Origin: Cyanidioschyzon merolae
Taxonomy: Eukaryota
Direction: 5' to 3' (one strand)
DNA: 64,000 nt
Assembly: GCA_000091205.1 (NCBI GenBank)
Contig: AP006494.2
The position numbers and the translations under genes were made by a program. Positions 4,901-62,935 of this stretch are shown here, in pieces; positions within the stretch are counted from its first letter, which is position 1; each line of letters opens with the position of its first letter. The notes below the pieces were generated by a model. It was not told the DNA's origin. It saw nothing but the letters and a program-made list of their open reading frames with translations, and ran no database searches.

Positions 4901-5023
4901 CGTCGCTCGAACTGGCCACAGGGGCTCGCAGTACCGGCCCGAGGGTGACGGTTCAAAGTGGGCTCGAATGCCAAGCTCGCGTGCTCGCAAGAGCGTCGCA
5001 GTCGAGCCCAGCCCACGTTGCAT
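1967..5023 (-). CDS. WD40-repeat protein of the DDB1/CUL4-associated factor 8 (DCAF8/WDR42) type, 1018 aa, with long low-complexity insertions (polyQ, polyG, acidic tail)
   Basis: N-terminal LRARELG...GHTGCVNALCWNDSGTLCLSGSDDTRIALWNL and C-terminal GHRNAITIKEVNFYGPNDEYVISGSDDGRVYIWD...VVNCVEKHPYEPYLVTCGIDATIKLW resemble the DCAF8 WD-repeat blocks. Single uninterrupted ORF. Confidence 0.6.
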   Translation of the reverse strand: MQRGLGSTATLLRARELGIRAHFEPSPSGRYCEPLWPVRATHPGTTEAAVGASRAFLYRLALCSVWDGHTGCVNALCWNDSGTLCLSGSDDTRIALWNLNYQHLNEDGELWLPNARSTTRRGPLEPNDYERYLAAEDEPRAAPGVSPERWRQRPLLTFQTGHSANIFDVRFVPFTGDRVIVSCAGDHEIRVCDLERRCIRTVCCHTGRVKKLAVDPQNPQVILSCSEDGTVRQFDLREAHRHRCRPTLRHSRDTRRCQNILLDVNEIDWRRIHASFQEQAFDSEHERTYRLRQLSPQRNLLITEPSIELYSLKLHPLDSNRFVVAGTNEFVQLYDRRMLSQLRGPVRVYAPLERRTVAEQHRQEREAYRQVLLERERRAARVRRRNLRRLVNPAGHVYEDTDPDDAGGGLVDTEPILGRLGRMLLQEMYESVSITGVAFSRDGSQLLASYAHDAIYLFDTEPKKGSFLCGGGGGGGGSGGDYEAPSERPAETIVDAMDQRSSRVELHQQQQQQPIVASNAPLFADDSSERTSIPHDLQSEGVSRPITRRRAHSLRIQTQASHSDRVIQADSMSAQAHTASQPQPMTSTTLSEHSEVSISHAIRPTGSVTGSRSLPPDCIRATATSGEQAESSLSRLDGATDLGVGPPGRDAVLQVAERNMQSFAGTADEPAGSRPETHSLVSRLSAPPAAMASHPSVRTSVDVSSANRPRVLRRGSSEPQEYEAAESMQVRGQMRSTLAVDGATSPADEELEPPGDWTRVPRWLTTRCSPDGSYVRCFLGHRNAITIKEVNFYGPNDEYVISGSDDGRVYIWDRYTGDLIQVFLADRDVVNCVEKHPYEPYLVTCGIDATIKLWRPEAPMPRRIRDLSRIVHEASTYHRQEGRPRNELRGAWLDMYELFYINLEPIVGVAPQTRPNDPAEQAGSVHSLSEEEEEEDEEEDSANSGSSADEIDASGESDIEASRVRRAASSAPETRLELEMTARDPLLERLLPARDRQFEQPRHASRFRNTNTDESDAT

Positions 5024-5361
5024 CGAAGCAGGAGTGCTCGCAAACGAGGCCCCGAGGCGTGCCGCTCGCTTTCGGGTCGAGCGGTGCGGCTTCGGCGAAC
5101 ACCAGCAACGCCGACTATGGAGCCAAAAGCCGTGTCCAACGGTGCACGAACGACGAACGCTCTACCTGTTCGTATGCTGGTTGTTTCTAAACAACCAGAG
5201 TCACGGTTACAGGTAGGAGTTCCACCAGGTCGACGGCGTCTTCGAACGACACCCCCAGGTTTACGAAAGTGCCCCGAGGTCGAAGCCATTTCGTCATAGA
5301 ACGCGTTGCTCCTGGGTCGACGCACTAGCACACGCTGCCGCTGCTCCTTTACCAGAGACTG

Positions 5362-5904
5362 GTGTCGCTTATGACAACACTTCGCAAGTTCGTCGCCACA
5401 GACCTTTTCAATTTCAACTTGATCAATCTGGACCGGTTCACAGAGACCTATAATCTTGGTTTTTATGGGTACTACTTTACGCGCTGGCCTTGGTTGCAGC
5501 GGGTCGTGGTGGCCCCCGACGGCACGCTGGCCGCCTACATCCTTGGCAAAGTGGAAGGAAGTGGCCGCATGCTGCACGGACACATTTCCGCGGTCACAGT
5601 CGCACCGGAGTACCGCCGCCTCGGTGTGGCACGGGCACTGTTGCAGTTTCTCGAACAGGTCTCGGAGCAGCACGCGGGGGCTTTCTTTATCGACTTGTTC
5701 GTACGGGTGAGCAACCGTACCGCCGTGGACATGTACCAGAGACTCGGATACGCGATTTATCGTACTGTAGTTGGCTACTACGCTGACTCCGAAGACGCCT
5801 ACGACATGAGGAAACCGTGTCCCAGTCGTGACCCTACCGGAAGCTGTCTGGTTTGCGCTCGCAACCGCCGTCGCGTCCGTCCGCATGAATTGGAGTTCGA
5901 CTAG
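5362..5904 (+). CDS. NAA20: N-alpha-acetyltransferase 20 (NatB catalytic subunit), 180 aa; true start probably at Met-4 (MTTLRKF)
   Basis: MTTLRKFVATDLFNFNLINLDRFTETYNLGFYGYYFTRWP...HGHISAVTVAPEYRRLGVARAL...AVDMYQRLGY is a near-canonical NAA20/Nat5 sequence with the GNAT acetyl-CoA motif. Confidence 0.85.
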   Translation: MSLMTTLRKFVATDLFNFNLINLDRFTETYNLGFYGYYFTRWPWLQRVVVAPDGTLAAYILGKVEGSGRMLHGHISAVTVAPEYRRLGVARALLQFLEQVSEQHAGAFFIDLFVRVSNRTAVDMYQRLGYAIYRTVVGYYADSEDAYDMRKPCPSRDPTGSCLVCARNRRRVRPHELEFD

Positions 5905-6172
5905 TTCTGGTGGCCTGGTGATGAGCTTGGAGCCCTCAGATAACAAGGCCCAGTATCCGAGCACATGCGTTCGAGTTCGATGAGGTCTGGTGGCGGGGCG
6001 ACAAGAGCGAGCGCTGAAATAGCAAGGCCATATTTTGTTCACGGGTGCAGAGGCAGCTGGCGATTCGCCTTGACACCGGCACGCCAACATCTCGACACTA
6101 CCATAGGGGGTGCGAGGTTTTTACGAAGCGCTGAAGGAGGCGTCACGGGCCTTGGTTCACGATCCTTGTCAT

Positions 6173-7381
6173 CTACAACGCGTCATCCAGTTCCTCCGAG
6201 CACATGACATCAACTTCTTCAGGTACAAGGGCCGACGACGATGACGATAATCCGAGGCCTGACGTCTCATGATCACCATCGCCACCTCCACGAAACGGAA
6301 CAACTGGTGGCGGCATGCAGAGACGTGGACGCTTCTTCGGGGCCCCAGAAGGATAGAAAGTGCGATCAAAGAACAAGCTTTCAGATGAGAGCAAATACGA
6401 GTCTTCATGTGCGTCTCCAGAGATGTTCTCCTGGGATGCGGCAGTCCTTTCGAGGTACGCCGCAAGCTCCATGACAGAACGAGGCGACTGGGACGATTTC
6501 ACTGAGGACAGGATAGGGCGTCGCGAAACCTGGTGTTGACACAAATCCTCGATCCCTGCCAGGCATGCCTGCACATCACTCGCTGCATCGGATAGAAACT
6601 GACCCAAACGGAGGCCCGCCTCGATCGAACCGGGCAGTTGATGGCTCGCACACAGAATGCTCGCTGCTGCGACGACTGATGGCCGATACGAAAGCGCGAT
6701 AGAGGAAGCTCGCAAGGCGATATCCGCGAAACGCAACGACTCGGCAAGGAGGGCGTACGCGAGCGGACTGCGACCCTGACGCCGATCCGCCTGTGTGGAT
6801 ACGCCTTTGCTTCTCGCTGGCTCACTGCCTTGCTTCCCCGACAAGCAAACCCACCCATCATGCATCGGAGTATCCATTGTGGACGTCATGTCGATTTCCA
6901 TAAAATAATAGATAAATGGAATTGCAGACACTCGGACGACGTCCCATTCGAGTATACGCAACAGCTCCTGCTCCATGCGCACGATAGCTGACTTGGAGTA
7001 GAAGCCCGCATTCAATGCATGTAACTTGTGCAAGACCGCCGGGTCGCTCTCCGTCTCTTCACACTTTGCCGCCACTAGGATACACGCGCTCGCCAGCAGT
7101 TGCCACACGTTGCACGACACGCCCTTGTTTCGCGCGAAATACTCGTCGAAACAACTGACGGCGCTATGCACGGTACTTCTCTCGAGGCGCAGCACCTCGC
7201 CGGCATCCAACATCCACTCGACCACTTGCCCGCGATAGAACGCGTACTGCTGCGGAAAACAGAAGCGTTCAGCGACATTGGCATAGAGAAAACGAACGCG
7301 GCGCTCTCGCTCGAAAAACACAAGCCCAGCGTCGTCCCATTCAGATCCCTTCGTTTCAACCAGCATGACCACTCGATCCAC
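6173..7381 (-). CDS. Cyclin (cyclin N-terminal box), 402 aa
   Basis: Cyclin box: VVEWMLDAGEVLRLERSTVHSAVSCFDEYF...CNVWQLLASACILVAAKCEETE...MEQELLRILEWDV. Confidence 0.7.
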   Translation of the reverse strand: MDRVVMLVETKGSEWDDAGLVFFERERRVRFLYANVAERFCFPQQYAFYRGQVVEWMLDAGEVLRLERSTVHSAVSCFDEYFARNKGVSCNVWQLLASACILVAAKCEETESDPAVLHKLHALNAGFYSKSAIVRMEQELLRILEWDVVRVSAIPFIYYFMEIDMTSTMDTPMHDGWVCLSGKQGSEPARSKGVSTQADRRQGRSPLAYALLAESLRFADIALRASSIALSYRPSVVAAASILCASHQLPGSIEAGLRLGQFLSDAASDVQACLAGIEDLCQHQVSRRPILSSVKSSQSPRSVMELAAYLERTAASQENISGDAHEDSYLLSSESLFFDRTFYPSGAPKKRPRLCMPPPVVPFRGGGDGDHETSGLGLSSSSSALVPEEVDVMCSEELDDAL

Positions 7382-8057
7382 GACAGAACGCTTTCCTGTA
7401 GCCCAAAGCAGAAAACTTGGCCCTGTCGCTGCTGCTGCTGCCGTCGTCGTCGTCGCTGTTCAGGAGACTGCACAGCTCGCTTAGGTACCCGAGCAGTGGC
7501 GGACGCTTCCTCGAGCGCCGGTGTCGCCAAGTCGCCTCCTGCAATTGAGTTCCCCGCTATGCTTGGTATGTCAGACCCCCAGCTGATCTGACTGCAGGAG
7601 GAAAGCGACGTTGCCACACAGCGTGGCAGCCTGGGCACCTGTTTCCAAGCGATACCGCCGAGGGGCGTCACTACTGCAAGGTAGAGAGCGAGAAATATCT
7701 GGGGATGGGCGGGAGGCGGCTGGCGGCGACGTCTCCCGCCGCAGCTGCCGCTGCTGCTGTTGTAACGTGTGACCGTTGCGTTGGATGATCGACGCGCGCG
7801 CGCGCTGCGATCTGGGATTTTTTCTCAGATGACGAAAAGTGCCCAGTGATCAGGGATCCCAGATTGCGGGATGGGTAGGTATTCGTTATCGAAAAAGCGT
7901 CCATGATGCTTCACGATACCTCCAAGTTCCATTACTTGTGCCTCCGTTAGGATGCACTGGTCGTTTCGTACGTTCTATCGAGCGCTGAGTGTCTGCTTTG
8001 CTGCACCCTGCTGAAGCGTCTACACCGACAGAGCAGATGCTGCGCGGAGACAGCGCG

Positions 8058-8345
8058 GCGTTACTGTACCACTGATGACTTCGGCTCGAGGCGCGGTCCA
8101 TCTGATAAGGGATCAGGATTCATGATCATTCTGGGATCCAGCGATCTGCGTAGGCGTTGCTGTGCCACTGATGACTTCGGCTCGAGGCGCGGTCCATCTG
8201 ATAAGGGATCAGGATTCATGATCATTCTGGGATCCAGCGATCTGCGTAGGCGTTGCTGTGCCACTGATGACTTCGGCTCGAGGCGCGGTCCATCTGATAA
8301 GGGATCAGGATTCATGATCATTCTGGGATCCAGCGATCTGCGTAG
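8058..8345. repeat. Perfect or near-perfect tandem repeat, 96-bp unit x3, inside the 5' region of the long element (the paralogous copy at 50242-50337 has one unit)
   Basis: Direct reading: the unit gcgttgctgtgccactgatgacttcggctcgaggcgcggtccatctgataagggatcaggattcatgatcattctgggatccagcgatctgcgtag is repeated head-to-tail. Both strands stay ORF-open through the array only because the unit lacks stop codons. Confidence 0.9.
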
Positions 8346-9012
8346 ACAGACGCACTGGCTGCGGCAGCGCGAAGCGATATGCTACGAGATAATCGTCATA
8401 TTGGCGACGCCCAGACGCAGTCTAAGTGTACCTGGTCTCGGAATAAACCGCGTTGCCGACGAGTTACTCAGATCTCAATAGAGTACTAGGCACTGGGTGC
8501 AGCATGGAGCACCAGCCTGGCAGACTTGTCCGGCTCGCAGGACATTCCGCCTGGAAGGTAAACGTTCGAAAATATGGAAACATTTTCCCCCTTTGAACGT
8601 TTACCGTAGAGGGGAAAGAACATTTTATCCACTTGGTAGTTAGTCCTTGGTTTATGATCTTTTTTGTACATGGTGCGCTCGATATGCGCACACCCATATC
8701 TGGCAGGCATGCGACCTAGCATGTGCATCTCGCCGCTGAGGGGAAACGCGAACCTGATCATGAGCGTGTTGCTCTGACTTACAAGATGTATTTGCGTTCA
8801 AGGCACAAGAGAGTATGTTTTTCTCAGTTCAATTGTGTGTCAGCTCTCAAGTGAGTGTATTCGAGCGATTTTTCGCGGGTTGTAGCAGAAGCTTTCAAAG
8901 TGCGTTGTTTTGAAAAATAGTCGAGATAAATCGGGAAAAATATGGTTGTAGAAGTGGAGGATCCTGGAGGGCCCCGTATCGCCGGCTGCCGCAAAAAAAA
9001 AACCGAAGAACA

Positions 9013-10986
9013 GTGCCAACCAAAGAGGAACAACACAGGACCAGGAAGCAAGGCGGCGAGGGCCGACACCAAAACCTGCAGGGAAAACGACAGTACGACG
9101 AGATGGAAGTGAAAGCCTGTCTTTTACGCTGCGTCAAGGATCCGTGCAGGGAAAAGTTGCAAGAGGGCATCAGAAACCGTGTCGATTCGTACTCCAGGAG
9201 TATTGTAAAGGCCTGTTCAGGAATGATGCATGTGGTGAAGGTGATGTGTCGCGACGTGACGGACATCCAAACCGTCGAGGTTCCGGACGAGATTTTCGGC
9301 AAGACCTTCATTCGTCACCTGATGGTTGGAACAGGGGAAACGTCGAGGAGAAATGAGCGAGTTCGTGCCCTCCACGAAAATTACATCAAATACCGCTCCA
9401 ACGGTACTCGATACACGGGAGACTCGCGTATTTACGAATACGGGGCGATCAAGTACCTCACGAACCTGAAGAACCACGTGACCATGAACCTCAAAGGCTT
9501 CATGATACGCTCCGTCTTTGCCCTCGACCTGGAGCTGTCTCGCATAGGGATACGGGCCATCATCGACGGCATCAAGAACGATAGTCGGAATGAACAGGAG
9601 ATCGAATTTGCCGACAAGAAGACATCAAGCAGAGGAAAGAATGAACCTTCTGGAATCCCTGCGGCTATTCAGGAGCACCGTGCAGACTTGGGGCTTGTCA
9701 ACCCCGCGGATAAAGTATCAGAGATGAAAAAGATGACGAAAGATTTTATCCCCGCGTCCAGCGCTATTCCGTGTTTTTGGAGCGAGAACTCGAACGCCAG
9801 GCGGAGATGGAGCTCACTAGGGGAATACGTGAAGATTCGGAGAAGCGGAAGGCTTTCGTAATGGGTAAGCGCTTCAACGTCATTCCATTATGCAACAGCA
9901 AGTAGCACTTTGTGCGAATCGACGCTAGCGTCCTTCATGGCATCACGGGGGAGATGTGTCCGGAGTTCAGTTTTTTCAGGAAGGAGTTCGCCGGCGAAAA
10001 CCCGGAATCGTACTGGAAGAGTATCTTCGATTTCAAATGTCAGAATACAAGCAAAGAAAGATGTATACGGGGAATATCGAAAGAGATGGGATTCTGATGA
10101 ATGTGCACTACGGGTGCTTGATGGCGGATCTTCCTATTCTGTCTTTGTCGGTGCCTTTGACGGAGCATGAGAAGGACAAGGAGGTCGGTCCACGACGCAG
10201 GAGGTGCAGGAGAACGACTTTGTCGTCGGCGTGTGATACCGGGAACACGAATATCGTGACCATCGCTGCACCCAATTTTGCGGAAGATGGCATCGACGGT
10301 AACTTACGTCAGAGAGACATGCGTCTTTTAAAGCTCTCGAGAGCGAGATATTACCGAGACTCGGGAAAAATGAATGCAAGGAAACAAATTGTGACGTGGA
10401 ATGCTGGAGTGAAAGAGCACCTGGAAGCGGTCAGCCAGGTGACTAGTCGTCGAGCGGACCGCTGAGCATTTCTGGAATTCATGAAAAGTTGCGTTGCTCA
10501 TCAAGAGGAGCTGTGGAAAGAGTACACCAAGCCCCGGTGGGTTCGTCAGCATATAACTTTTGTACTGTGGAAAACAACCTGCATTCGCGAACTTTCTTAA
10601 TCAGTTGAGCGCCCTCATAGAGGACAAGAGTCGAAGGCTTGTAGTAGCATACGTTGCAGGTCGCTGAGCCTCCAAAACCAGGGAGCATATCTGCTCCATC
10701 GACAAGAGCGTACACGTAGTGCGCACATCGTTCCGTTACAGTACCGACAGATGAGTTCTGAGCGTCCTACATACACCATGAGCTGGGATGTACACTTCAG
10801 AGGGTCGAGATGGCGAAAAGCCAGCGGAGTCTTGAGGATATAGAAAGGTACGGAGAGCTTGCAGAACAGGAAATTGCACAGAGGGCACGAGCACGAGGAC
10901 TTGTCGCACTGCTTCGTACCACTTGTGGCAAGAAACGCATGAAGTTCGTGAACCGTGACTTTAACGCCGTTATCAAGATCCGATGA
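9013..10986 (+). pseudogene. TnpB/Fanzor-like RuvC nuclease gene, disrupted. N-terminal ORF 9013-9861 (likely start MEVKA at 9103), middle ORF 9956-10465 with RuvC-I-like SSACDTGNTNIVTIA near 10229-10270, C-terminal ORF 10810-10986 ending KKRMKFVNRDFNAVIKIR-stop. Frame changes could be introns or frameshifts
   Basis: The N-terminus MEVKACLLRCVKDPCREKLQ...RVDSYSRSI mirrors the TnpB start pattern (M.KAYK.RLYP..EQ...RFVYN). ACDTGNTNIV matches GIDLGIKNxAT (RuvC-I). RDFNAVIKI matches (D/N)RDxNAAxNI (RuvC-III). An in-frame TGA lies 3 codons after the motif, where the 36-kb copy has Cys. Confidence 0.45.
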
Positions 10987-12130
10987 TTTGCGGCGCTGGA
11001 GAGGAGACCCGAGCAGCTGACGCCATCTAACTTTGTCGGGAAACCGCTCCGGGTCGAGATGAATAAGGAGAAAGTGAAGCCAGTAGTTGGCGACCGGTCG
11101 ACAAAGACTGGGAGCTGTCTCCTTATCGATGGATTGACATCCAGTCTATGGCGGGCGGCGCGCCGCTCGCCACTATTGGACCCCGCTTATGTAGCGTACG
11201 CCGCTCGGAAGGCATGTCGTTGTTACCGGTGCGACGGATGCGTTGATGCTGGCTCTGCTGGGGCAATGCAGCTGGTGCTTGAAGCACTGCGGGTGCGCTC
11301 GTTGATGCGCTGCTGCTTTGATCCTCGGGCGACTCGTCTCGACGGCTGCGTACGACCGGACGACGCTGATGCTGATGCTGATGCTGATGGCGTACGATCG
11401 CGAGCGAAACTGTTTCTATGTGCATAGTGAGGGCGTATTCGATGTCAGAAACAGACTGGGTCACGTTTCCGGTACACTGGTCATGCGGATCATCAGAATG
11501 CTGTTACCAGTGGCATTGGAAATGCGATGATGCGCTTGCATCCGCGTCTGAACACAATGTGGGCTTTCGCGAGCTCCCCCGGACTGCATGCGACGCGTGA
11601 GCACGCATCGCGCACCGATCGCCACAGCTGTTTGCGCGTTTGTGGAACAGCAGCTGCCTTGGCGCTCCGACTTGTCGCTGAAGCACCTCATTGCGATTCG
11701 GTGGCAACGCAGATCCATTGCAGGCGTCAGCATCCGTCCCTGGGCAATGTCCAGGTTGCAGGTACGCGATCCATGCTTCAGCAATATGCACAAAACATAA
11801 TGATAGCCTCGTGACGCTTGCAGAGCAAACGTCGTCCGAGTCCCTTGTTTGGGCTGATGCACATGAACCAGAGATCCCGGGTTGCGCGATGGACGCTGTT
11901 TTCTTGCACTGACGGCAACTTTCGGGAAATCGCCCTAGATCCGGGTACTCCCCAGTCCAGTAGGGCGCCGCAGCGTATCGAGCAGCGCACGCTCTAGGTG
12001 GACACCATGGCAATGTCCAAAATAATCCATTTTATACTGATTTACCTCCGGATCACTCGTGGACGGTACGTAGCGCCTGCCGCGATCCGGCCCGCAGCGC
12101 TTTGTCCATCCTGAACTGTTTCGTCCGCGA

Positions 12131-28360: not shown

Positions 28361-28599
28361 AGCGTGCTGCTATACAGAAATCTTTCCTACTGAATCCAGC
28401 CCTGCTGCCTGGTACCTCCTTGATCAGGCACCTTGCTTGTCCAGACCAGAGCCAGTATTGCACGTGGAGAAGCGCCGCTGCCTGCGCATGAGCGGCAGCG
28501 TGTCACCGGGATCAAGAGTCGCATTGGGGAAGTTGTCGTATTTCACTTTTGTACCAGCCCCGCTGCTGGGGTGTATAGAACGAGATCGAAATCACGATG

Positions 28600-29750
28600 C
28601 AAAGTATCGTAGAGATCGTGGATGAACTGCGTGTGGAGTACATGATCTTTACTGAACAGTACATGGAGGGCTGCATTCTTCCTCCAGATCAGTCATAGTA
28701 CAGTACGCACGTAGTTTGGGAACAATGAAAAAAAAGTAGATGCGCTCTGCGCCAAAACCGATATGCTCAAAGCGCCCATGCGGTCAATGGTAGAAAATGA
28801 CGTGTTGGTCATCTTACGGAAAGCAAAATGAGAAGATCATAGCCACCACGGGCGTCTCTGTTTCTCAATAGCTTGTTGATGTGCTCCTGAAATCACTGGG
28901 GTACAGTCACAAACAAATTCTAGGTCACGGACGGTTACGTTCCACCGATATTGCCCCTGGGGAGTTCCTGGAACGTCGCGGTCGCTATGAAGCAGAGGGA
29001 CGTTGGTTTTATTTTCCAGTAGATGAGACTTTCTTTGGACGAAACGGTCCGAGCGTATCTAAGCATTCGAGGTGAGAGGAGCCAACGGTACCGACCATGG
29101 AACTCGTAGAGAACGACGACATCGTCATCTATCCTAACTGGAGTGGATTCATTTTTGGTGGTCTTATTTCCGCTCGTAGAGAAGACGCATACAACAGCAT
29201 TCACTTCTGCGAACCATTACAGACATTTCTGCTAAGGTCTGGTGACTTCCCTCTATAGGACAATGTAGTATTTCACCGTTTAGCATATGTTCAAGCGTAT
29301 GCGGATTCTATCGGGATAGAGCGACTTTTCACTCTTCCGTATTCGCCATGGTTCAACCGCACCAAAGCATGGTCGAGATGGTGCGAAGCCTGCGGAGTGC
29401 TTCGGCGATACAAAAGCACGGAGAGCTGACACACCAGCATATGGCAGAGAGAGTTCGAGGAATCCTCGATATGATGAGTTCATTCAGAGGCAATAAACGC
29501 ATGGAATCGGTGAACCGAGACTCCGGTGCTGGTATTCATACCAGACCATGTGCGGTGCTCCAGAAAAGACCTGAGGAGCTGACGCAAGTCCGCTTGTGCG
29601 GCAGCCTCTCAGACCCGAAACACCCAAGGAGAAGCTGAGACCGGTGGCGCGGGGCCGGATAAAAAACGTCCGGAGGCACCTCTGGGTGGATATTAATGTA
29701 CCCGACATGGTAGGCAGACATTTTTTGTTTCATTCACGACGTATGCGTGT
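28600..29750 (+). mobile_element. Short degenerate copy of the TnpB/Fanzor-like element family; RuvC-III region decayed to NKRMESVNRDSGAGIHTRPCAV (29498-29563)
   Basis: DNA and peptide similarity to the 35.9-37.35 kb copy: the 5' segment ...ctgaacagtacatggagg..., the RGRYEAE...PVDETFFG block and the RuvC-III region. Ends about 0.5 kb upstream of the AGC kinase start. Confidence 0.4.
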
Positions 29751-33278: not shown

Positions 33279-33550
33279 TCGACTTGTGCAGCGCTCTCGA
33301 TCCAAACTTGTTTCTATGTTTTTAGCCCCGTGATGTAAACACACCTGGTAGCCCGTGACGCCATCTAAAACCGCTAGTAGAACACAGCGCAAGCTTTCGT
33401 TCTAGGGGGAATTCCAGGCACGCTGGTTTGTCGCAAGCGCTTGATGCGGCTTCGCTTTGTACGCAGCCGCCGGCTCAGAGCGTCTGCGTTACCGGAATGG
33501 AGAAGAGAACGCTATCGATGCCCAGAGGGAAGAGACTTTACTGTTTCCGT

Positions 33551-33764
33551 CGATGCTTCCGTTTTTACCAGCTCCGTGCCAAAAACTTCCCCAGAACAAT
33601 AAAGGTGTGATCACTCTGACGACTTGCTGAGAACCGCGCCCCTTGCAGGCGCTCGGCGATGCTTCCGTTTTTACCAGCTCCGTGCCAAAAACTTCCCCAG
33701 AACCATAAAGGTGTGATCACTCTGACGACTTGCTGAGAACCGCGCCCCTTGCAGGCGCTCGGCG
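33551..33764. repeat. Tandem duplication, about 107-bp unit x2, in the 3' flank of the AGC kinase gene
   Basis: gatgcttccgtttttaccagctccgtgccaaaaacttccccagaac[a/c]ataaaggtgtgatcactctgacgacttgctgagaaccgcgccccttgcaggcgctcggcg occurs twice head-to-tail with 1 mismatch. Confidence 0.85.
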
Positions 33765-35929
33765 CTGCGCTAGCTGTGCAGTCGCCGTCGACATACCGTA
33801 AGAGGAAGGCGTGGCCATGCCTACACGGGCTGCGCTTCCAGTCTCATCGCCGCGGTACCAGCATGACCTCGTCAACGGCACCGTTGCTACCGAGCGCGCT
33901 CAACGTCATCTCAGCGCTTTCTATGAGTGCACCAAGACAGAGCGGCAGCGATAGGCAATGAGACGGACCTTTCCATGAGGTACAGCACACGGTGCTGTGC
34001 TGCGCGTGGCCTGCATGCTCCCCAAAGACATAACTGGACAGAGGGTTTTTAGCGGCGCCAAGGTACAGCAAAGCACAGCAAAACGAGGCAAGGTACGGCT
34101 CTGTTGCAATGATGCCGAGCGAGCCGCGAAACGCGCTGGGAACGGTACAGTAGGCAAGCGGCGCGCGTGCTCCCCTATGCCCTAGTTATCGTAAAGTAGA
34201 ACACTGAAGTACTCGCTGTGTTCCCGCTTTTCAATTTTTCCAGAGTTGGTCTAGAAATACGGCATAGAAACTCGAAGTTCAGGAATGAATTCGAATGGAC
34301 GACTATGCAAATGTAGAATTCTTGAATGTTTTCTCGGAGTATTGTGTACGATGCTTTGCCACCGGAATTTGTTACGTAATCGTCATGATTCGCGTCGCAC
34401 TCGAACCCGGATTCGTAAAGTAACCGATATCGTTATGCGATGCTTGCGTACTAGCGTCGACTCATGTCCTGGCTGTAGGTGCAGCATGCCCAAATCAAGC
34501 ATTGTATGGAATTCGATCCTTCTGTTGCAAGGCCACTCGAGGCTGAAGCATCTTGCGCCGCCTAGTAGACGAGAAAAGCGAAAATGCTCGACTTCTTCTG
34601 TGAGCGACTTTATGACCTACTCATGCTGATAGCGTACTGAACGTCTCATGCCGAATACTCGATTCTGCTCGAAATACAAACGCTTTACACTGTCTGGTTA
34701 TTGATGAAATCGGAAATGAGCGCAGTATAACCATGCCTCTCACAGGGTATGTCGGTTGGGATCGTCTGTCTTCGGTTTGCACGGAAAATGGTCTTCGAAT
34801 TGCAGTTCAGTGAGCCTAGCGGTCAGTGGCTGTAGAGCGTGCATGTCGCTTCGCCTGAAACGAGCCTAAACGAATCGGAACTCCTCGACTTGATGTCTAA
34901 CCTGAATTTTCCTTACGATATGTGTTTAATCATGGATAACATCGTGTTCCATAAATCCTCTATCGAACGGAAATGCGCACACTTTCGCATATGCAGCGGA
35001 CCGGGCACCTGCCTTGGGGATCGCCTCGAAGAAGTCCTTGATCGTAGGACGCGGCACTCTGTGCGGATACAGAGGAAAACAGCGCTGGGAGCCTTGCGTT
35101 CACGTCAACCGCATGTACCGAGCGATGAAGCGCGCTGTCGTGCGACTCTGGGCGGCGCTCGGAGCCGCAGAAGGTCTAGTGCATCCCTGGGAGCACTTGA
35201 TCGCAGTCACTTGTCACCGCTGGAAAGCGCGCATGGAGACCGTCTGCATAGTAGGCGAAACAGGTGAACGAAACCTGGATCAGAACTTTTGCCTGTGCGA
35301 GGAACCCCCAGAGAACAACCGGAAGCGGCGGAAACGGGCTTTCATGCTGCGATCAGTATCCACGACTGATTCCAACAGAATTTGCGGGATAGGTAGGACC
35401 GGCGTATTCGAAGCGCGAGACAAGGGAGAGGAAAATGAACCGGTCGCAGAAAAAGCTTGCCATGGCTGGTGTTGATGACAATGCTGAGCGAGCCATACGT
35501 CAGTGTGTGTGTGTGTGCGCTCGTGCTATGTGAGAGCGCCCGTCCCACGGTATTCCGACATGAGTGTACGGCATGCAGGACGATACCGGAATGTTTTTTT
35601 CTGCGGTGAGAGGTCGACGCATCGATCCAGGGATCTGTAGCGAGTGCGATGCTCCTGCGTATCGATCGATGCAAACAGTGCGCGGGCCCAGTGCCCCCAG
35701 TGCTCTACGAACCATAGACCAGACTTCACTTTGTGAATAATGGTTTGTTCGCACGACCTTCCCAAGTATAGGTCCTACTGTGAGTGTCTAGAATGGCGCT
35801 AGTCGTAGCAGCAGCACTGCGGGCCGCTGAATGCAGACAGATCGGTTTCACGAGTCCCCGTCTGGCGCCCGCTCGAACGTCGATTCTCATCAGGGAAACG
35901 GATCACTACGGGCGCTATGAGATCGGCCT

Positions 35930-37350
35930 CAGAAGTTTTTGTCTTTCAACTCAGTTTCGTGGCAAGTCTGCTGCGGTGTGCAGTAGGCGGTTGAAATCTC
36001 CATGGAATGTACTGTACCGATCGTAGACGAATCGCCAATAGAATATGTTGTTTGCTGAACAGTGCACGGAGGGTTTCATTTCTCCATCGGATCAGTGATA
36101 CCACAATACCCATATGGTTGAGGAACACTGAACGAAGCAAGTACACGTGGTCTGCATTAAAACAACCGATATTCTCGAAGACTGCGACCTGTTAGTGGTA
36201 TAAACCAACCCACCGGACACGTTCCGGAAAGCGAAATGAACAATAGTAGGCAGCACGGGCGCCGCTTTTCTCAATTGCCTGTTCGCGTGATCCTGAAAAC
36301 ACTGGGATGCAGTCGGAATAAACTTCTGGTTCACGAACGGACATCTTCCACCAAAATCGGAACGAGAGCGTTCTCAGAATGTCGCGGTCGGTATGAAGCA
36401 GAGCATCATCGGTTTGTTTTACCGGTCGATGAGACTCGCTTCGGAAAAAGACGGTCCGAGCGTATATGGGTATTCGTGGCGGGGGCGCCCCCTTCTATGT
36501 ACAATCAAATTCGATGAGGACGATGACATCAACTGTCCTAGATGTAGTGGATTCTAGTGGCGGCCGCAGTTTCGCTCGTAGGCAAGGCTCACACAACAGC
36601 ATCTACATGCTTAAATCATTGAAGACATTTGCCTCTGACGTTTGATCACGTTCGTCCATTGGATATCGAGGCATCTCACTCTTCGCTTTACGTAACTGCA
36701 TTTGCTGCGCGTGCCGGAGGTAGAGCCGGTCTTTTCTTCCCTGTACGCCTAGTGCCTTAACTCCATCGACGGAGCGTTTCCATCGTGAAACGTAATGATC
36801 GCTCTAGTAGGCGAATCGTTGAAGCGTACATCACACGGTGACACGTTGACACATACCGTCTTTTACCAGCAAGTGCTTCTCCCTTTAGGATGGTTCTCAC
36901 CCAGGCACATAAATAAGTGCGTTCATTTTAGAAAAATAAGGGATGAGCTCGGACGTACATTTCAAAAGGTCGAGTTTGAGCAGAGGCAGTGGAGCGCTTC
37001 GGCTATAGAAAACTACGAAGCGCTGACCGAAGAGCAAATGGAAAGGAGGGCGAAAGCTCGTGGATTGCTTGCACCAGTGAGTACAACGAATGATGGCAAG
37101 AAACGTATGGAGTTCGTGAACCGAGACTTTAACGCCGCCATCAATATCAGGAGATGTGCCGTGGTGGAGCATAGACCTCCAGAGTGGACAAGAAGGTGTT
37201 TTGTTGGACAACCTCCCAAAGTCGAACTATATGAGAAAAAATTTGAAGCAGTAGAAGGTGGCCTGTCCCAAAAGACTGCAAGGCATCTGCACGTCAGTTG
37301 GCTACGTTTCCTCCAAGGCGCGTTGCCGCTACTACTGTGCACCGCTGGCG
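35930..37350 (+). mobile_element. Short copy of the TnpB/Fanzor-like element family with the best-preserved 3' module (ORF 36795-37436 carries intact RuvC-III KKRMEFVNRDFNAAINIRRCAV at 37122-37148); 5' part has an HTH-like ORF (36007-36195) and a middle ORF (36236-36517) in different frames
   Basis: RDFNAAINI exactly fits the TnpB/Fanzor RuvC-III consensus. The 5' end aligns with the 62.9 kb and 28.6 kb copies. The 3' end aligns with 10.8-11.2 kb of the long copy. It abuts the ChaN-like gene start. Confidence 0.45.
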
Positions 37351-37365
37351 ACGTTCGACTTTTGA

Positions 37366-38781
37366 ATGGCTATTGGCTGCATGGAGCAAACTCGAAAACG
37401 ACGGCGGACGGGATGTTTTCATACCCTCGGCTTTGACTGGAGACAAGCGCTCGCGACTGCCTTTATGCCACCAGAACCACGAGGCTTTTCCGCAGCCGCG
37501 TGCCAACGCGCAACACGTTGGCAGACGGTACAGCCTCGAGCTCGTCGACGGACGCTTTCAGAGCGTCGGCTACAAATGCTATACGTCAGCCGTCGAGAGT
37601 TTCTGTGGCAACTCGCAGCGGGCGCGGCAACGCTGGGCTTTCACAGTGTGAAAAAACCTGTGGCGCCAGCGGCTTCAAACTCGGCACCACCGGCGCCCGT
37701 GAATGGGCGCTTGGCACCACTGGGTGCTATCTTCGACACGATGATCGGCTCTTTTCTACCACCGCGACCTGAGCGACTCTTATCGAGGCGAATTCGGCAT
37801 AAAGGAGCACGCTCTGTTCTCTTGGTCGGGGAGACACACACGGACCGACAACACCATCGGGTGCAACTGGCGTTGCTGGACTCGTTTGTGAAGCATGTTC
37901 GAGGTCAGCGGAATGAGTCGATTGCAGGAGCTCCAATTGCGATCGGCATGGAGCATTTCTATCGGCAGCATCAAGTGCATCTGGATCGGTACATTGCGGG
38001 CAAGATTGAGCTACGACAGTTACTCGCTATTACTCGTTTCGAACTTACCTTTGGGTATAGCGCGCAACTTTGGCAGGATATTTTGGAGTATGCACGGGAA
38101 AACCGTATTCAGGTTGTTGGTCTCAATACTCCGTTCGAATTGGTGCAGCTGGTTGCCCACTACGGCCTGGATCACTTACCAGAACGTTTGTATGAAGTGC
38201 TTCCTCGCGATATGGATGTGCATGGTAATGCTGCACACCGTGAGCGTTTTATTCAGAGGATGAAAGCGTTGGGGGTGGAAGCGCATGGTCCACTCATTAA
38301 CGACGAGGCAGCACTGCAGCGAATGTATGAATCGCAGGTGCTCTGGGACGAATACATGAGCGAATCGGCGGCCTTGTGGCTAGAGCGGAACCCCCGCGGT
38401 CACTTGTGTATTTTTGCGGGTAATGGTCACGTCGAAGGCCGTGTTGGGATTCCAGACCGCCTGACTCGTCGTTCTGGGAGGCCGACCTTCACCGTCGTGC
38501 CGTATACGGTGCCGTTCCAATCAGACGGCTGGCCCGATATACCGCATCCCGGCAACAGAGATGTCGGAGATTGGCTCTGGTACCTGCCTGTAGGATCTGG
38601 GGGTGCCGAATCTGACGAATCGGACCCCAAGTCGCAGCGACAGCAACGGTTCGGGGAGCGTTTCGGCTATCGAATCGCACGCAGTACCGAGTCCGACATG
38701 AGACTGATGGGGCGAGGCGCAGCCAGAACCATTCAGAGAGGTACGCAGACGAAATCTGTGGACGAGCCGGACTGGGTATGA
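37366..38781 (+). CDS. ChaN/DUF399 (Tiki-superfamily, haem-binding-uptake-like) protein, 471 aa, with N-terminal R-rich extension followed by a twin-arginine motif; true start may be an internal Met (37465 or 37579)
   Basis: VLLVGETHTDRQHH and FAGNGHVEGRVGIP match the two GxxH signature blocks of the ChaN/Tiki fold. SRREFLWQLAAGAATLGF is a textbook Tat (S/T-R-R-x-F-L) signal. Confidence 0.55.
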   Translation: MAIGCMEQTRKRRRTGCFHTLGFDWRQALATAFMPPEPRGFSAAACQRATRWQTVQPRARRRTLSERRLQMLYVSRREFLWQLAAGAATLGFHSVKKPVAPAASNSAPPAPVNGRLAPLGAIFDTMIGSFLPPRPERLLSRRIRHKGARSVLLVGETHTDRQHHRVQLALLDSFVKHVRGQRNESIAGAPIAIGMEHFYRQHQVHLDRYIAGKIELRQLLAITRFELTFGYSAQLWQDILEYARENRIQVVGLNTPFELVQLVAHYGLDHLPERLYEVLPRDMDVHGNAAHRERFIQRMKALGVEAHGPLINDEAALQRMYESQVLWDEYMSESAALWLERNPRGHLCIFAGNGHVEGRVGIPDRLTRRSGRPTFTVVPYTVPFQSDGWPDIPHPGNRDVGDWLWYLPVGSGGAESDESDPKSQRQQRFGERFGYRIARSTESDMRLMGRGAARTIQRGTQTKSVDEPDWV

Positions 38782-49599: not shown

Positions 49600-49993
49600 A
49601 AAATAGTGACAGCAAGCACCTGCTCACGGCTTTTCGTACGGTGTGGCCGCCGCAGAAGCCCCGCTCGCCGGCGATGGCAACACACCGGAAACGACACTGG
49701 CCCCCGTGTTTCTCTGGAGTGCTGCTGCTGAGACCCCAATGGGTTCACAGCCAATACCAGCTGTTACAGCGTCCGCGTATTCGGTGTTCGCTGTCTCGAG
49801 CTGGCAGCGCAGTGCGCGAGGAGTACCAGATGGGCCCGTTTCAAGCTGCCCTGCGAGTGCCACGACGGTATTGTCCAGGTTGTCGTGAGGCACTGGGATG
49901 GACAGATTGGGAAATGGGACAGATTTGCCATCTGAGTGACTGCGGCGGCGGCGGCGGCGGCGGCGGGATCTCGACTTTGCGCATCGATCTGCG

Positions 49994-51927
49994 ATCTGGG
50001 ATTTTTTCTCAGATGTCAAAAAGTGCCCAGTGATCAGGGATCCCAGATTGCGGGATGGGTAGGTATTCGTTATCGAAAAAGCGTCCATGATGCTTCACGA
50101 TACCTCCAAGTTCCATTACTTGTGCTTCCGCTAGGATGCACTGGTCGTTTCGTACGTTCTATCGAGCGCTAAGTGTCTGCTTTGCTGCACCCTGCTGAAG
50201 CGTCTACACCGACAGAGCAGATGCTGCGCGGAGACAGCGCGGCGTTGCTGTACCACTGATGACTTCGGCTCGAGGCGCGGTCCATCTGATAAGGGATCAG
50301 GATTCATGATCATTCTGGGATCCAGCGATCTGCGTAGACAGACGCACTGGCTGCGGCAGCGCGAAGCGATATGCTACGAGATAATCGTCATATTGGCGAC
50401 GCCCAGACGCAGTCTAAGTGTACCTGGTCTCGGAATAAACCGCGTTGCCGACGAGTTACTCAGATCTCAATAGAGTACTAGGCACTGGGTGCAGCATGGA
50501 GCACCAGCCTGGCAGACTTGTCCGGCTCGCAGGACATTCCGCCTGGAAGGTAAACGTTCGAAATATGGAAACATTTCCCCCCTTTGAACGTTTACCGTAG
50601 AGGGGAAAGAACATTTTATCCAGTTGGTAGTTAGTCCTTGGTTTATGATCCGTTTTGTACATGGTGCGCTCGAGATGCGCACACCCATATCTGGCAGGCA
50701 TGCGACCTAGCATGTGCATCTCGCCGCTGAGGGGAAACGCGAACCTGATCATGAGCGTATTGCTCTGACTAACAAGATGTATTTGCGTTCAAGGCACAAG
50801 AGAGTATGTTTTTCTCAGTTCAATTGTGTGTCAGCTCTCAAGTGAGTGTATTCGAGCGATTTTTCGCGGGTTGTAGCAGAAGCTTTCAAAGTGCGTTGTT
50901 TTGAAAAATAGTCGAGATAAATCGGGAAAAATATGGTTGTAGAAGTGGAGGATCCTGGAGGGCCCCGTATCGCCGGCTGCCGCAAAAAAAAACCGAAGAA
51001 CAGTGCCAACCAAAGAGGAACAACACAGGACCAGGAAGCAAGGCGGCGAGGGCCGACACCAAAACCTGCAGGGAAAACGACAGTACGACGAGATGGAAGT
51101 GAAAGCCTGTCTTTTACGCTGCGTCAAGGATCCGTGCAGGGCAAAGTTGCAAGAGGGCATCAGAAACCGTGTCGATTCGTACTCCAGGAGTATTGGAAAG
51201 GCCTGTTCAGGAATGATGCATGTGGTGAAGGTGATGTGTCGCGACGTGACGGACATCCAAACCGTCGAGGTTCCGGACGAGATTTTCGGCAAGACCTTCA
51301 TTCGTCACCTGATGGTTGGAACAGGGGAAACGTCGAGGAGAAATGAGCGAGTTCGTGCCCTCCACGAAAATTACACCAAATACCGCTCCAACGATACTCG
51401 ATACACGGGAGACTCGCGTATTTACGAATACGGGGCGATCAAGTACCTCACGAACCTGAAGAACCACGTGACCATGAACCTCAAAGGCTTCATGATACGC
51501 TCCGTCTTTGCCCTCGACCCGGAGCTGTCTCGCATAGGGATACGGGCCATCATCGACGGCATCAAGAACGATAGTCGGAATGAACAGGAGATCGAATTTG
51601 CCGACAAGAAGACATCACGCAGAGGAAAGAATGAACCTTCTGGAATCCCTGCGGCTATTCAGGAGCACCGTGCAGACTCGGGGCTTGTCAACCCAGCGGA
51701 TAAAGTATCAGAGATGAAAAAGATGACGAAAGATTTTATCCCCGCGTCCAGCGCTATTCCGTGTTTTTGGAGCGAGAACTCGAACGCCAGGCGGAGATGG
51801 AGCTCACTAGGGGAATACGTGAAGATTCGGAGAAGCGGAAGGCTTTCGTAATGGGTAAGCGCTTCAACGTCATTCCATTATGCAACAGCAAGTAGCACTT
51901 TGTGCGAATCGACGCTAGCGTCCTTGA
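49994..51927 (+). mobile_element. Second, 3'-truncated copy of the long TnpB/Fanzor-like element: 5' region (one 96-bp unit, same hairpin) plus intact N-terminal ORF 51003-51851; lacks the RuvC-bearing part
   Basis: About 98% nucleotide identity to 7806-9936. The 282-aa ORF differs from its paralogue at 6 residues. Similarity stops abruptly at 51927. Confidence 0.6.
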
Positions 51928-52487
51928 ATGCACAAAACGACCAGTGCATCCGAGAACAGGTAATGGAACATGGAGGTAGGGCGCATCATGATGGACGCTT
52001 TCCCAAATGCTTGTACCCAGCTCGCAATCCTGGGTCCCTGGTCAACGTAAACGTTTTTTGAACAAAAATGCCTGAAGCAGCTGCATCGGGACTGCAATGC
52101 TGCCAGTATCGACCTTCGACAGTTGATAACGGAACTGGAGGGAAATGAGCACTCACATGAAATACACGCGAAATCTGGTATGGATGATCCCGAAGAGCGT
52201 GTCAAACTTTGAGGTTTCCAGTCGAATTTGAGAATATGTCATACTTTATGCTACCCTGGATGTATCATCGTGTACGGCACGTTCGTGGTCGACACCCCGT
52301 GTAACGCCGCACGTCGATACAACATAGCCCTTATTCTCCTCTAGACCAGTCACTGGCGGTGTACCTGTTTTGACACACGACCAAATCGAGTGTCTTACGC
52401 CTTAGTTCAAGCTCCACGGCACCAAGCGTAGTTCGTAGGCGGCCAAGTAGACAGACATGAACTGGACGCTGGCTCGCCGCGCTTGAC

Positions 52488-61539: not shown

Positions 61540-62935
61540 TGGGTGCGTCGTCCTTCGCCCCAGGAACCGGCTCGGTACGCACGCTGTCGCCCGTTGCGAG
61601 CACAAGTGCAAACCCAGCTGCACAACGCGTATCACTGCGTTCTGCGTTTGCGCACACCGGGGATGCAGCGCAGCCGCTCGAGCACTCGGACGTACCACTG
61701 TGAGAGTCGTCTGCCTGGACGCAGTCGAAAGCGTCCCGTCGGATGAATATATGTTCTTGCTTGTCTCCCATCTTCTTCTTCGTGGTCGTATGCTCTTCTT
61801 TGCTCCATAATCGGAGACAAGAGGATTTTCCGGTTTTTCGGGCATCTGGGGGTGACGGCGCGCCAGGATCCTCTGCTTGCATGTCCATACCTATTACTTG
61901 GATTTTGTATTTCTTCAAAATAAACGCACTTGTTAATGCCCTTAGATAAGGACCTTTTCGGAGGCAGGAGGACCTGCGGAAGAAAGACGACTTGTGCTCG
62001 CGGTTTGTCCCCGCGGGCTGCACGCTTCAGCGATTCCTCCAGTGAAGCGATCATTATGTGTCACAACAGAGAACAAGCCTTCGATGGGGATGAACCACGG
62101 AGCGTACGGAGGAACCACAAGGAGGTCTAGCACCCAACAGAATCCTCAAAAGCTCGAATGCAAGGGAAACAGTGAGATGCCACGCTGTCCAATAGAGGAA
62201 CGTCGCCAGACGTCAGGGGTAAAGTCGTCAATCCTTTGATAAACTGGGTGCTATTATGTGAGCCTTCTCCACTGGGGAAACTGATGTCGCCACTTGAATC
62301 CACTGCAGCTAGAGCAGATGATGATGTCGTCGTTCTCATCGGGTTCGACTGTGCATACGACGGGCTCCCTCTCCACGAATACCCATATACGCTCCCACGT
62401 TTCGTCCGAAGAAAGTCCTATCAACAGAAAAAAGAAACCGACGATCCTGTGCTTCTCACAGATCGCGACGCTCGATAAACCCTCTCGTTGGGATTTCGGC
62501 AGCAGATAGCCGAGTGTGAACTAGGACTCTCTTCTTGCGACTGTGCCCCTGTGCGTTTCGTAGGACATGAACTAGCCGTAGAGAAACAGAGATTCCGGTG
62601 GTGGCTGCAATCATCGCTTTTATTTTCCGCAAGGTGAACAAAGAGTCGGTTTTGTACCACTGGCCGCAAACAGTGTTTAAGAATATCGGATTCTAACGCG
62701 GACCGCATACACTCCTCTCTTTCAGCGTTCCGCAACCATTTGAAGACTGTGGTATGACTGACCTGAAGGAGGAATGCAGTATTCCTTGCACTGTTCAGTA
62801 AACAATAGTTCTTATAGACGATTCGTCTACGATCTATACAATACATTGCATTGTGATTTCGACCGCCTACGATACACCGCTACGAGGAGGGCACGGTCGA
62901 GTGAAACAAACCTGAGTCAAAAGAATATATAGGTT
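61540..62935 (-). mobile_element. Short copy of the TnpB/Fanzor-like element family in inverted orientation (HTH-like ORF 62421-62846, MIASLEESLKR ORF 61632-62054); RuvC-III region decayed; 3' end abuts the prefoldin-4 start
   Basis: The 5' end ...ggtttgtttcactcgaccgtg...gcggtgtatcgtaggcggtcgaaat... (reverse complement) aligns with 35.93-36.0 kb. The ORFs MYCIDRRRIVYKNYCLLNSAR / MIASLEESLKRAARGD parallel MYCTDRRRIANRICCLLNSAR / MIALVGESLKRTSHGD. Confidence 0.4.

Follow-up and report, generated by a model that had tools for sequence, protein, structure and literature searches.

In the characterised Fanzor1 systems, the omega-RNA is encoded at the far right end of the element (PMC10432273; PMC11423790). 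The omega-RNA of SpuFz1 consists of a 75-nt scaffold and a guide of 14–15 nt, which is taken from the flank and lies directly 3' of the scaffold (PMC10432273). Those of SpuFz1 and PpFz1 both run from a first stem-loop (SL1) through a second one (SL2) into the guide (PMC11423790), and other Fanzors co-purify with RNA from the non-coding 3' region next to the right end (PMC10530073). At the Spu-1 "ghost" loci, the omega-RNA is retained without the gene and is functional with the nuclease in trans (PMC10432273). In Cyanidioschyzon merolae, the Fanzor1 family CMe-1A comprises about 150 copies of about 3 kb, which are about 80% identical to their consensus and have neither terminal inverted repeats (TIRs) nor target site duplications (TSDs); its 5'-only derivative, TE-N2_CMe, is present in about 70 copies (Bao & Jurka 2013, PMC3627910). 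Here, we describe the pieces of this family in a 64-kb stretch (the window) of the 859-kb chromosome of C. merolae strain 10D, centered on an internally deleted copy at 35968-37379 (+), the 36-kb copy. The short non-coding tail that follows the CMe-1A nuclease gene is probably the omega-RNA scaffold of the family, because its position, strand, size, two-stem-loop layout, and variable flank match those of the known Fanzor1 omega-RNAs.

The window contains six pieces of one repeat family, as identified by self-comparison and by tblastn with related proteins. A reconstructed translation of the longest piece (the long copy) retrieved 20 relatives, and a scan of metagenome contigs retrieved 423, from which 80 loci were kept. 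Contigs with 99% identity to the window occur in some of the same metagenome samples, so that many of these 80 loci probably represent further copies from genomes like that of C. merolae. Built from 36 non-redundant full-length copies, the consensus is an uninterrupted open reading frame (ORF) of 740 codons ending in ...GRRLHVSWRRFV (...SWRRFV), with the catalytic motifs DPGNTNI, VDEFRTS, and NRDFNAAINI. An exhaustive profile search yielded 1489 superfamily cluster representatives at 50% clustering. Among the 60 members aligned for a superfamily profile, the RuvC-I/II/III triad D484, E656, and D725 is invariant. This profile matched the solved Fanzor1 chains from Parasitella parasitica (PpFz1, PDB 9cf0, E = 1.2e-21), Spizellomyces punctatus (SpuFz1, 8gkh, E = 2.4e-13), and Guillardia theta (GtFz1, 9cer, E = 4.2e-8), and on the strength of these sequence matches, we therefore assign the family to Fanzor1. 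An earlier note on this DNA, which had taken the repeats for a TnpB/Fanzor-type system, was right in this respect.

Only the broad superfamily profile found these structures; PDB sequence searches with the narrow family profile or with the C-terminal half of the consensus returned nothing. Pfam gave no significant match to the ORF pieces in the window, four close homologues, or the consensus, with Cas12f1-like_TNB staying below threshold (E = 0.64 for the consensus, and 0.002–0.09 in four of ten distant relatives). A model by AlphaFold2 from a shallow alignment of 20 close relatives was unusable (predicted local distance difference test score of 31.5), and a second homologue search with the family alignment found only close relatives, all metagenomic. 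The relatives shown by the protein searches all come from metagenome or Logan/ENA assemblies, and none carries an NCBI or UniRef accession; the family is thus unannotated in the C. merolae RefSeq genome despite its approximately 150 copies. Nearly all copies are pseudogenes, as only one locus among 46 full-length copies examined has an ORF longer than 650 aa. The repeats in the window are CMe-1A by the published description of that family (host, length of about 3 kb, Fanzor1 ORF, no TIRs, copies about 80% identical to the consensus).

Among 65 distinct 3' modules of the family, similarity runs for 65–85 nt beyond the stop codon and then falls to the level of the flanks. This tail is encoded on the nuclease strand, 3' of the gene, and abuts the right end of the element. 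Its similarity ends at most about 25 nt past the loop of the last hairpin, and from the base of this hairpin onward, independent insertions have unrelated flanks. The tail is composed of a first hairpin (H1), a single-stranded linker, and a terminal hairpin (H2). H1 has the family form GGCGnn-loop-nnCGCC, with an identity of 0.88/0.92 in the stem and 0.45 in the loop, to be compared with 0.73 at four-fold degenerate sites of the gene, and its pairs show double changes from GC to CG or AU. The linker, ACUACUGUA, has an identity of 0.80, also above the 0.73 at the four-fold degenerate sites. The primary sequence of H2 is only 0.62 identical and varies by subfamily, and it nevertheless remains a hairpin, reading CGUUCGA-CUU-UCGAACG in one subfamily and CGUUUUUC-UUUU-GAAAGACG in another. 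At two metagenome loci, L029 (15 bp) and L008, unrelated perfect stems stand where H2 is normally found. In the 36-kb copy, the covariance model described below places H1 (GGCG-loop-CGCU) at 37317-37330 (+), the linker aligns at 37331-37339 (+) as ACUACUGUG, and H2 was matched by the same model at 37340-37379 (+), with an inner stem of CGUUCGA/UUGAAUG that includes two G·U pairs and a loop of CUU.

A covariance model built from 12 seed sequences and a hand-drawn structure found 66 tails in the loci. In the window, it gave one strong match at 37296-37384 (50.7 bits, E = 3e-11), in the 36-kb copy, and a weak one (13.8 bits, E = 0.07) at 11127-11229 (+), the degraded tail of the long copy; it detected no tail near the 29-kb copy, the 62-kb copy, or downstream of the Fanzor pseudogene at the start of the window. 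A correlation between ORF length and tail score (rho = 0.40, p = 0.02) was set aside, as the model was built from one subfamily. The earlier note had proposed covariation analysis of the 3' ends. With one copy per locus (48 copies, H1 and inner H2, 500 shuffles), 79.2% of the cells were paired, in comparison with 74.3 ± 0.8% after shuffling; double changes occurred in 14 of the 18 pairs (8.5 when shuffled), and the covariation score was 0.162 (0.110 when shuffled). None of the 500 shuffles reached any of the three observed values. When the pairing partner was slid by 1–3 columns, pairing dropped to 35–56% and the covariation score to 0.05–0.085. The 66-copy alignment gave similar results, and G·U pairs in H2 outnumber A·C pairs by about 4:1 (169 and 42). 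Folding of the individual sequences points in the same direction: the 52 nt after the linker fold with a mean of -18.0 kcal/mol in the sense direction, in comparison with -12.2 for the antisense and -11.9 for control flanks (Wilcoxon p = 2.5e-8). A z-score below -2 was reached by 19 of 47 tails and two of 47 controls, and well-preserved tails fold at z = -3.4 to -3.9.

Several observations weigh against a functional RNA structure in this tail. The covariation counts rest on an alignment that was fitted to a hand-drawn structure. The 12 seed sequences alone show no covariation, and RNAalifold returned only the 4-bp core of H1 when given a MAFFT alignment and no structure when given the model-fitted one. 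A signal of conserved structure is seen on model-fitted alignments, in the folding of individual sequences, and in the contrast between stem and loop, but not with RNAalifold or in the seed set. Pairing is poor in the outer half of H2 (58% over the 66 copies), and a further helix (H0) drawn across the stop codon was dropped, because its A·C pairs outnumber its G·U pairs and it sits in coding sequence. The window tail itself folds at -21.7 kcal/mol in sense (z = -1.0) and -10 in antisense (z = +2.1), that is, no better than shuffled sequences in the sense direction, and the tail of the long copy gives no folding signal (z = +0.24). Neutral decay accounts for much of the variation, since almost all copies are pseudogenes. 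Rfam 15 gave no match at gathering score over the whole window. Finally, a compensated hairpin at the 3' end also resembles a transposition signal at the DNA level, and the strand bias in folding cannot separate an RNA from single-stranded DNA (ssDNA) of the top strand.

The coding sequence upstream of the tail bears no sign of constraint at the RNA level. In 36 related full-length copies, mean pairwise identity is 0.83, 0.85, and 0.76 at the first, second, and third codon positions, respectively. Over the last 100 codons, sliding windows gave 0.69–0.77 at third positions and 0.61–0.78 at four-fold sites, which is no increase over the means for the gene (0.76 and 0.73). Since conservation at third codon positions is not raised around RuvC-III, what is seen over these codons is the conservation of an ordinary protein-coding sequence at its best-conserved motif, and we rejected an RNA constraint over the entire 400-bp module. 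A scaffold that extends into the gene and constrains its 3' codons, as in TnpB and GtFz1, was accordingly not found here; such an overlap is not a requirement, the SpuFz1 scaffold being situated 3' of the stop codon. The earlier note had placed the candidate omega-RNA in the RuvC-III codons and the next 200 bp of the 36-kb copy, at 36975-37350. The module extends instead from 36943 to 37379, and the 200 bp after RuvC-III are mostly coding (about 55 codons, to 37313), with only about 65 nt (37314-37379) being non-coding. Of the proposed location, the approximately 375-bp coding part thus falls away, and the part that stands is the stretch of only about 65–85 nt from the stop codon to the right end, which we infer to be the candidate scaffold, with 37314-37379 as its relic in the window.

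If the tail is an omega-RNA scaffold, the RNA would be transcribed from the sense strand, possibly by processing of the 3' end of the Fanzor mRNA, and is predicted to be bound by Fanzor1 via its two stem-loops. It would continue into the flanking DNA, of which the first 15–20 nt or so would serve as the guide for DNA cleavage. For the 36-kb copy, the host sequence at 37380-37400 (+) would then be the presumable guide, provided that the tail is transcribed in this way.

The most serious alternative, which we consider unlikely but by no means negligible, is that the tail acts in cis as a transposition signal at the DNA level, of the type of the Helitron 3' subterminal hairpin or the right-end hairpin of IS200/IS605, recognised on ssDNA by a transposase supplied in trans. 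The hairpin stands at the very end of the element, a ghost copy keeps both ends, a T-rich tract precedes every left end, and the strand bias is compatible with transposition of a specific DNA strand. Compensatory changes are moreover known in the terminal hairpins of Helitron2 elements, some of which carry Fanzor1 and insert at T-rich sites (PMC3627910). However, the G·U-rich stems would be weak as DNA, no transposase was seen in the gene tables of any element, and local alignment of the left end with the reverse-complemented right end stayed within shuffled scores, so that neither asymmetric nor ordinary TIRs rise above the controls. A non-autonomous element of the Helitron2 type was rejected as a candidate on the same alignment, with the 3' hairpin being present and the asymmetric TIRs not above shuffles. 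The two roles also coexist in TnpB systems, which leaves such a signal compatible with an omega-RNA. An ordinary 3' untranslated region element of the Fanzor mRNA, involved in stability, 3'-end formation, or polyadenylation and without guide function, appears improbable to us: the tail follows the stop codon directly, on the sense strand and with a sense-biased structure, but its conservation ends at the element boundary and not at a poly(A) site motif, its size and position with two stem-loops match the characterised Fanzor1 omega-RNAs, and a ghost copy retains it without a functional ORF. Slightly less probable still is that the module has no function and merely reflects common descent with structure by chance, for although most copies are pseudogenes, the window tails fold no better than shuffles, RNAalifold is negative, and kinship alone can outperform shuffles without any structure, this explanation does not accord with H1 stems at about 0.9 identity beside a loop at 0.45 and a neutral proxy at 0.73, with double changes in 14 of 18 pairs where slid controls score far lower, with unrelated sequences making a hairpin in the same place, or with the asymmetry between sense and antisense folding.

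Coming back to the omega-RNA reading, the 36-kb copy shows how the candidate scaffold sits in a decayed element. Its 5' region, comprising the left end and about 1 kb of upstream sequence, occupies 35968-36938 (+). The same 5' unit recurs at 28563-29367 and 62880-61908 (-), in both places with about 68% identity, and again at 7150-8265 of metagenome locus L017. Over its first 100 nt or so, it can be weakly aligned with the long copy's left end. The unit in the 62-kb copy (matching 35973-36938) leads into the start of the Fanzor ORF, MDMQAEDPGAP. In the 36-kb copy, it is joined near the start codon directly to the codons for ...HELGCTLQRVE, corresponding to a deletion of about 617 codons, and the junction of the 29-kb copy lies within about 60 nt of this one. 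The Fanzor1 remnant at 36943-37313 (+) comprises the last 123 codons (residues 618-740 of the consensus; 76% identity by tblastn), and at the DNA level it shares about 80% identity with related copies at their 3' ends. The consensus matched 36945-37313 at 76% at the protein level, 10675-11127 of the long copy at 59%, and 29372-29602 of the 29-kb copy at 49%. NRDFNAAINI of RuvC-III, read from the sequence at 37119-37148, is the only RuvC motif left in the 36-kb copy. The former stop codon, for which the family alignments give TAG/TAA, is now CAA (37314-37316, +), and its loss opens a read-through ORF as far as 37436. The right end of the element coincides with the base of H2 at 37379 ± 5 nt, where similarity to the other copies stops. 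Mapping of the right end from empty sites was without result, as the orthologous loci L086-L092 from 99%-identical strains all carry the element.

The 36-kb copy thereby keeps both ends and the candidate omega-RNA region while the nuclease ORF is absent, the features of a ghost locus. It is probably a relic, because the stop codon is lost, the hairpins are weakened, and there is no intact nuclease gene anywhere in the 64-kb window. A second ghost was seen at 7150-8470 of locus L017, which consists of the approximately 1-kb 5' unit and the last 35 codons or so, with a junction unlike those of the window ghosts; the tail search recognised no tail in it.

At the right end of the 36-kb copy, the start codon of a neighboring ChaN/haem-binding-like gene (BAM80821, 471 aa, 37366-38781, +) lies inside the 3' arm of H2. 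This gene is called as 401 or 466 aa in 99%-identical strains, and its Pfam domain begins at residue 149. The annotated N-terminus of BAM80821 is probably spurious.

The other copies in the window are truncated or degraded in different ways. The long copy at about 7815-11229 (+) is of full length and CMe-1A type and is pseudogenised; its left end lies at about 7815-7828 (+) and its ORF remnant at 9004-11127 (+). It keeps all three RuvC motifs, yet carries stops and frameshifts. The 29-kb copy (28563-29602, +) joins the 5' unit at 28563-29367 to C-terminal codons at 29372-29602. As the earlier note had supposed from the sequence, both this and the 36-kb copy are to be regarded as internally deleted derivatives, a 5' unit being joined to C-terminal codons in each. 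The 62-kb copy (61751-62880, -) consists of the 5' unit and the first ORF codons only, and the 50-kb copy (49989-51925, +) is a 5' fragment that is 98.9% identical to 7805-9935 of the long copy. At the start of the window, a truncated Fanzor pseudogene with stop codons (2-679, +) shows about 33–35% protein identity across the RuvC half and represents a second, much more divergent Fanzor.

With all pieces in hand, the distribution of the 3' module differs from the one first described. It had been held to be common to all copies and the only part conserved among them. The long, 36-kb, and 29-kb copies do share the C-terminal Fanzor codons (by blastn, 72% between 36943-37177 and 10778-11009, and 68% between 36968-37128 and 29371-29522), whereas the 62-kb copy and the 50-kb copy, the latter missing from the original list, are without the module. 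The weak conservation ascribed to the 62-kb copy concerns only the 5' unit (35973-36938), followed by the ORF start, and the approximately 1 kb of 5' sequence shared by the 29-, 36-, and 62-kb copies at about 68% contradicts a module conserved on its own. Nor do the deleted copies preferentially retain the 3' end: of the pieces in the window, six keep a 5' region, four the 3' coding module, and one or two a recognisable tail, with 5'-only fragments being at least equally common there. The 29-kb and L017 ghosts have lost the tail, and the abundant derivative known from the literature, TE-N2_CMe, is 5'-only (PMC3627910).

Concerning the left ends (consensus GATGACAAAACGTTTACATTGACC...), a T-rich tract, typically TTTTTC(Y), stands before every one of them, and the copies are unrelated upstream of it. 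Such sites were seen at 7815-7828 and 50000-50011 in the window, and in the loci L007, L017, L039, L042, L044, L045, L054, L061, and L066. Judging from these junctions, the tract could be a target or a motif resembling a target-adjacent motif (TAM), or it could be the true first bases of the element. As CMe-1A elements have no transposase, TIRs, or TSDs, a far-reaching model would have them spread purely by cleavage guided by Fanzor1 and its omega-RNA with homology-directed copying, the T-rich motif being the TAM and the ghosts supplying extra guides; the guide at 37380-37400, the first bases of the ChaN-like gene, would then target or regulate the 5' end of a host gene. We regard this model as highly doubtful.

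Some further features of the repeats were observed. The identity between the 50-kb and long copies (98.9% over the first 2.1 kb) is far above that of other pairs (about 70%). The 50-kb copy breaks off at 51925 and is directly followed by a left-end fragment of another copy in inverted orientation (51926-52063, -). The near-identity together with the abrupt end points to either a recent duplication or a rearrangement between elements. In the long copy, the 5' region contains three tandem repeats of a 96-bp unit with 98–99% identity (8057-8345, +), and the 50-kb copy has a single unit (50241-50337). Copies of the family are often arranged head-to-head, their left ends no more than a few hundred bases apart, e.g., 1421-4012 (-) and 4118-6402 (+) in locus L005, or about 2492-2821 (-) beside 2834 (+) in locus L085, which hints at insertion into or beside existing copies. 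The window as a whole has a G+C content of about 55%, few introns, and about one long ORF per 3.5 kb. Seven of its long ORFs match C. merolae proteins exactly (BAM80810 to BAM80825, including CML234C and CML236C). A 115-bp direct tandem duplication with 97% identity (33548-33768, +) lies in the spacer downstream of a 1013-aa kinase-like ORF and is also found in 99%-identical strains.

If the tail is the omega-RNA of CMe-1A, it would provide a compact candidate Fanzor1 scaffold of about 85 nt in a thermo-acidophilic, genetically tractable red alga. In the small genome of C. merolae, the natural role of Fanzor1 in an element lacking a transposase would be directly testable, and the nuclease might tolerate heat, as predicted from its high-temperature host. 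For genome annotation, the analysis accounts for a C. merolae repeat family and marks the start of the BAM80821 gene as lying inside a transposon end. The general knowledge of how Fanzor systems are organised remains unchanged.

In comparison with the described systems, the window repeats agree with CMe-1A in the organism, in being single-ORF Fanzor1 elements of about 3 kb with old copies about 70–80% alike, and in having no TIRs and no determinable TSDs, and the 5'-only fragments in the window match the TE-N2_CMe type. The approximately 1-kb 5' unit of the 29-, 36-, and 62-kb copies sets them apart as a divergent subfamily. The CMe-1A paper appeared before omega-RNAs were discovered and contains no description of the tail at the right end or of its hairpins (PMC3627910), and we found no description of this tail in the literature searched. 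The Fanzor1 elements of the Helitron2 type (CRe-1,2,3) resemble CMe-1A in the 3' terminal hairpin with compensatory changes and in the T-rich 5' junction, but differ in their asymmetric TIRs, which we did not detect in CMe-1A. As in IS200/IS605 elements, in which the nuclease gene, at its 3' end, and the transposon right end give rise to the TnpB omega-RNA (reRNA), with the flank used as guide, the candidate RNA of CMe-1A would come from the right end; the TnpB scaffold, however, overlaps the ORF extensively, whereas the last 100 codons of CMe-1A are free of synonymous-site constraint. Like the Spu-1 ghosts, the 36-kb copy keeps two element ends and the (candidate) omega-RNA region. Unlike them, it still has 123 ORF codons and is the sole window ghost with a recognisable tail; the ghosts of S. 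punctatus are numerous and well conserved, whereas the 29-kb and L017 ghosts are tail-less. The closest likeness is to the omega-RNAs of SpuFz1 and PpFz1, with two stem-loops followed by a variable flank (PMC10432273; PMC11423790). This likeness is one of layout, similarity in primary sequence not being expected, and there are differences: H1 of CMe-1A has 4–6 pairs in comparison with the reported 7-bp SL1, H2 is long at 12–20 bp in comparison with 4 or more bp in PpFz1, and CMe-1A is without the flanking 30-nt inverted repeats. CMe-1A is thus a known Fanzor1 family in a known host, with a candidate right-end RNA element of the kind that would be expected of it, and the copy in the window is a decayed ghost.

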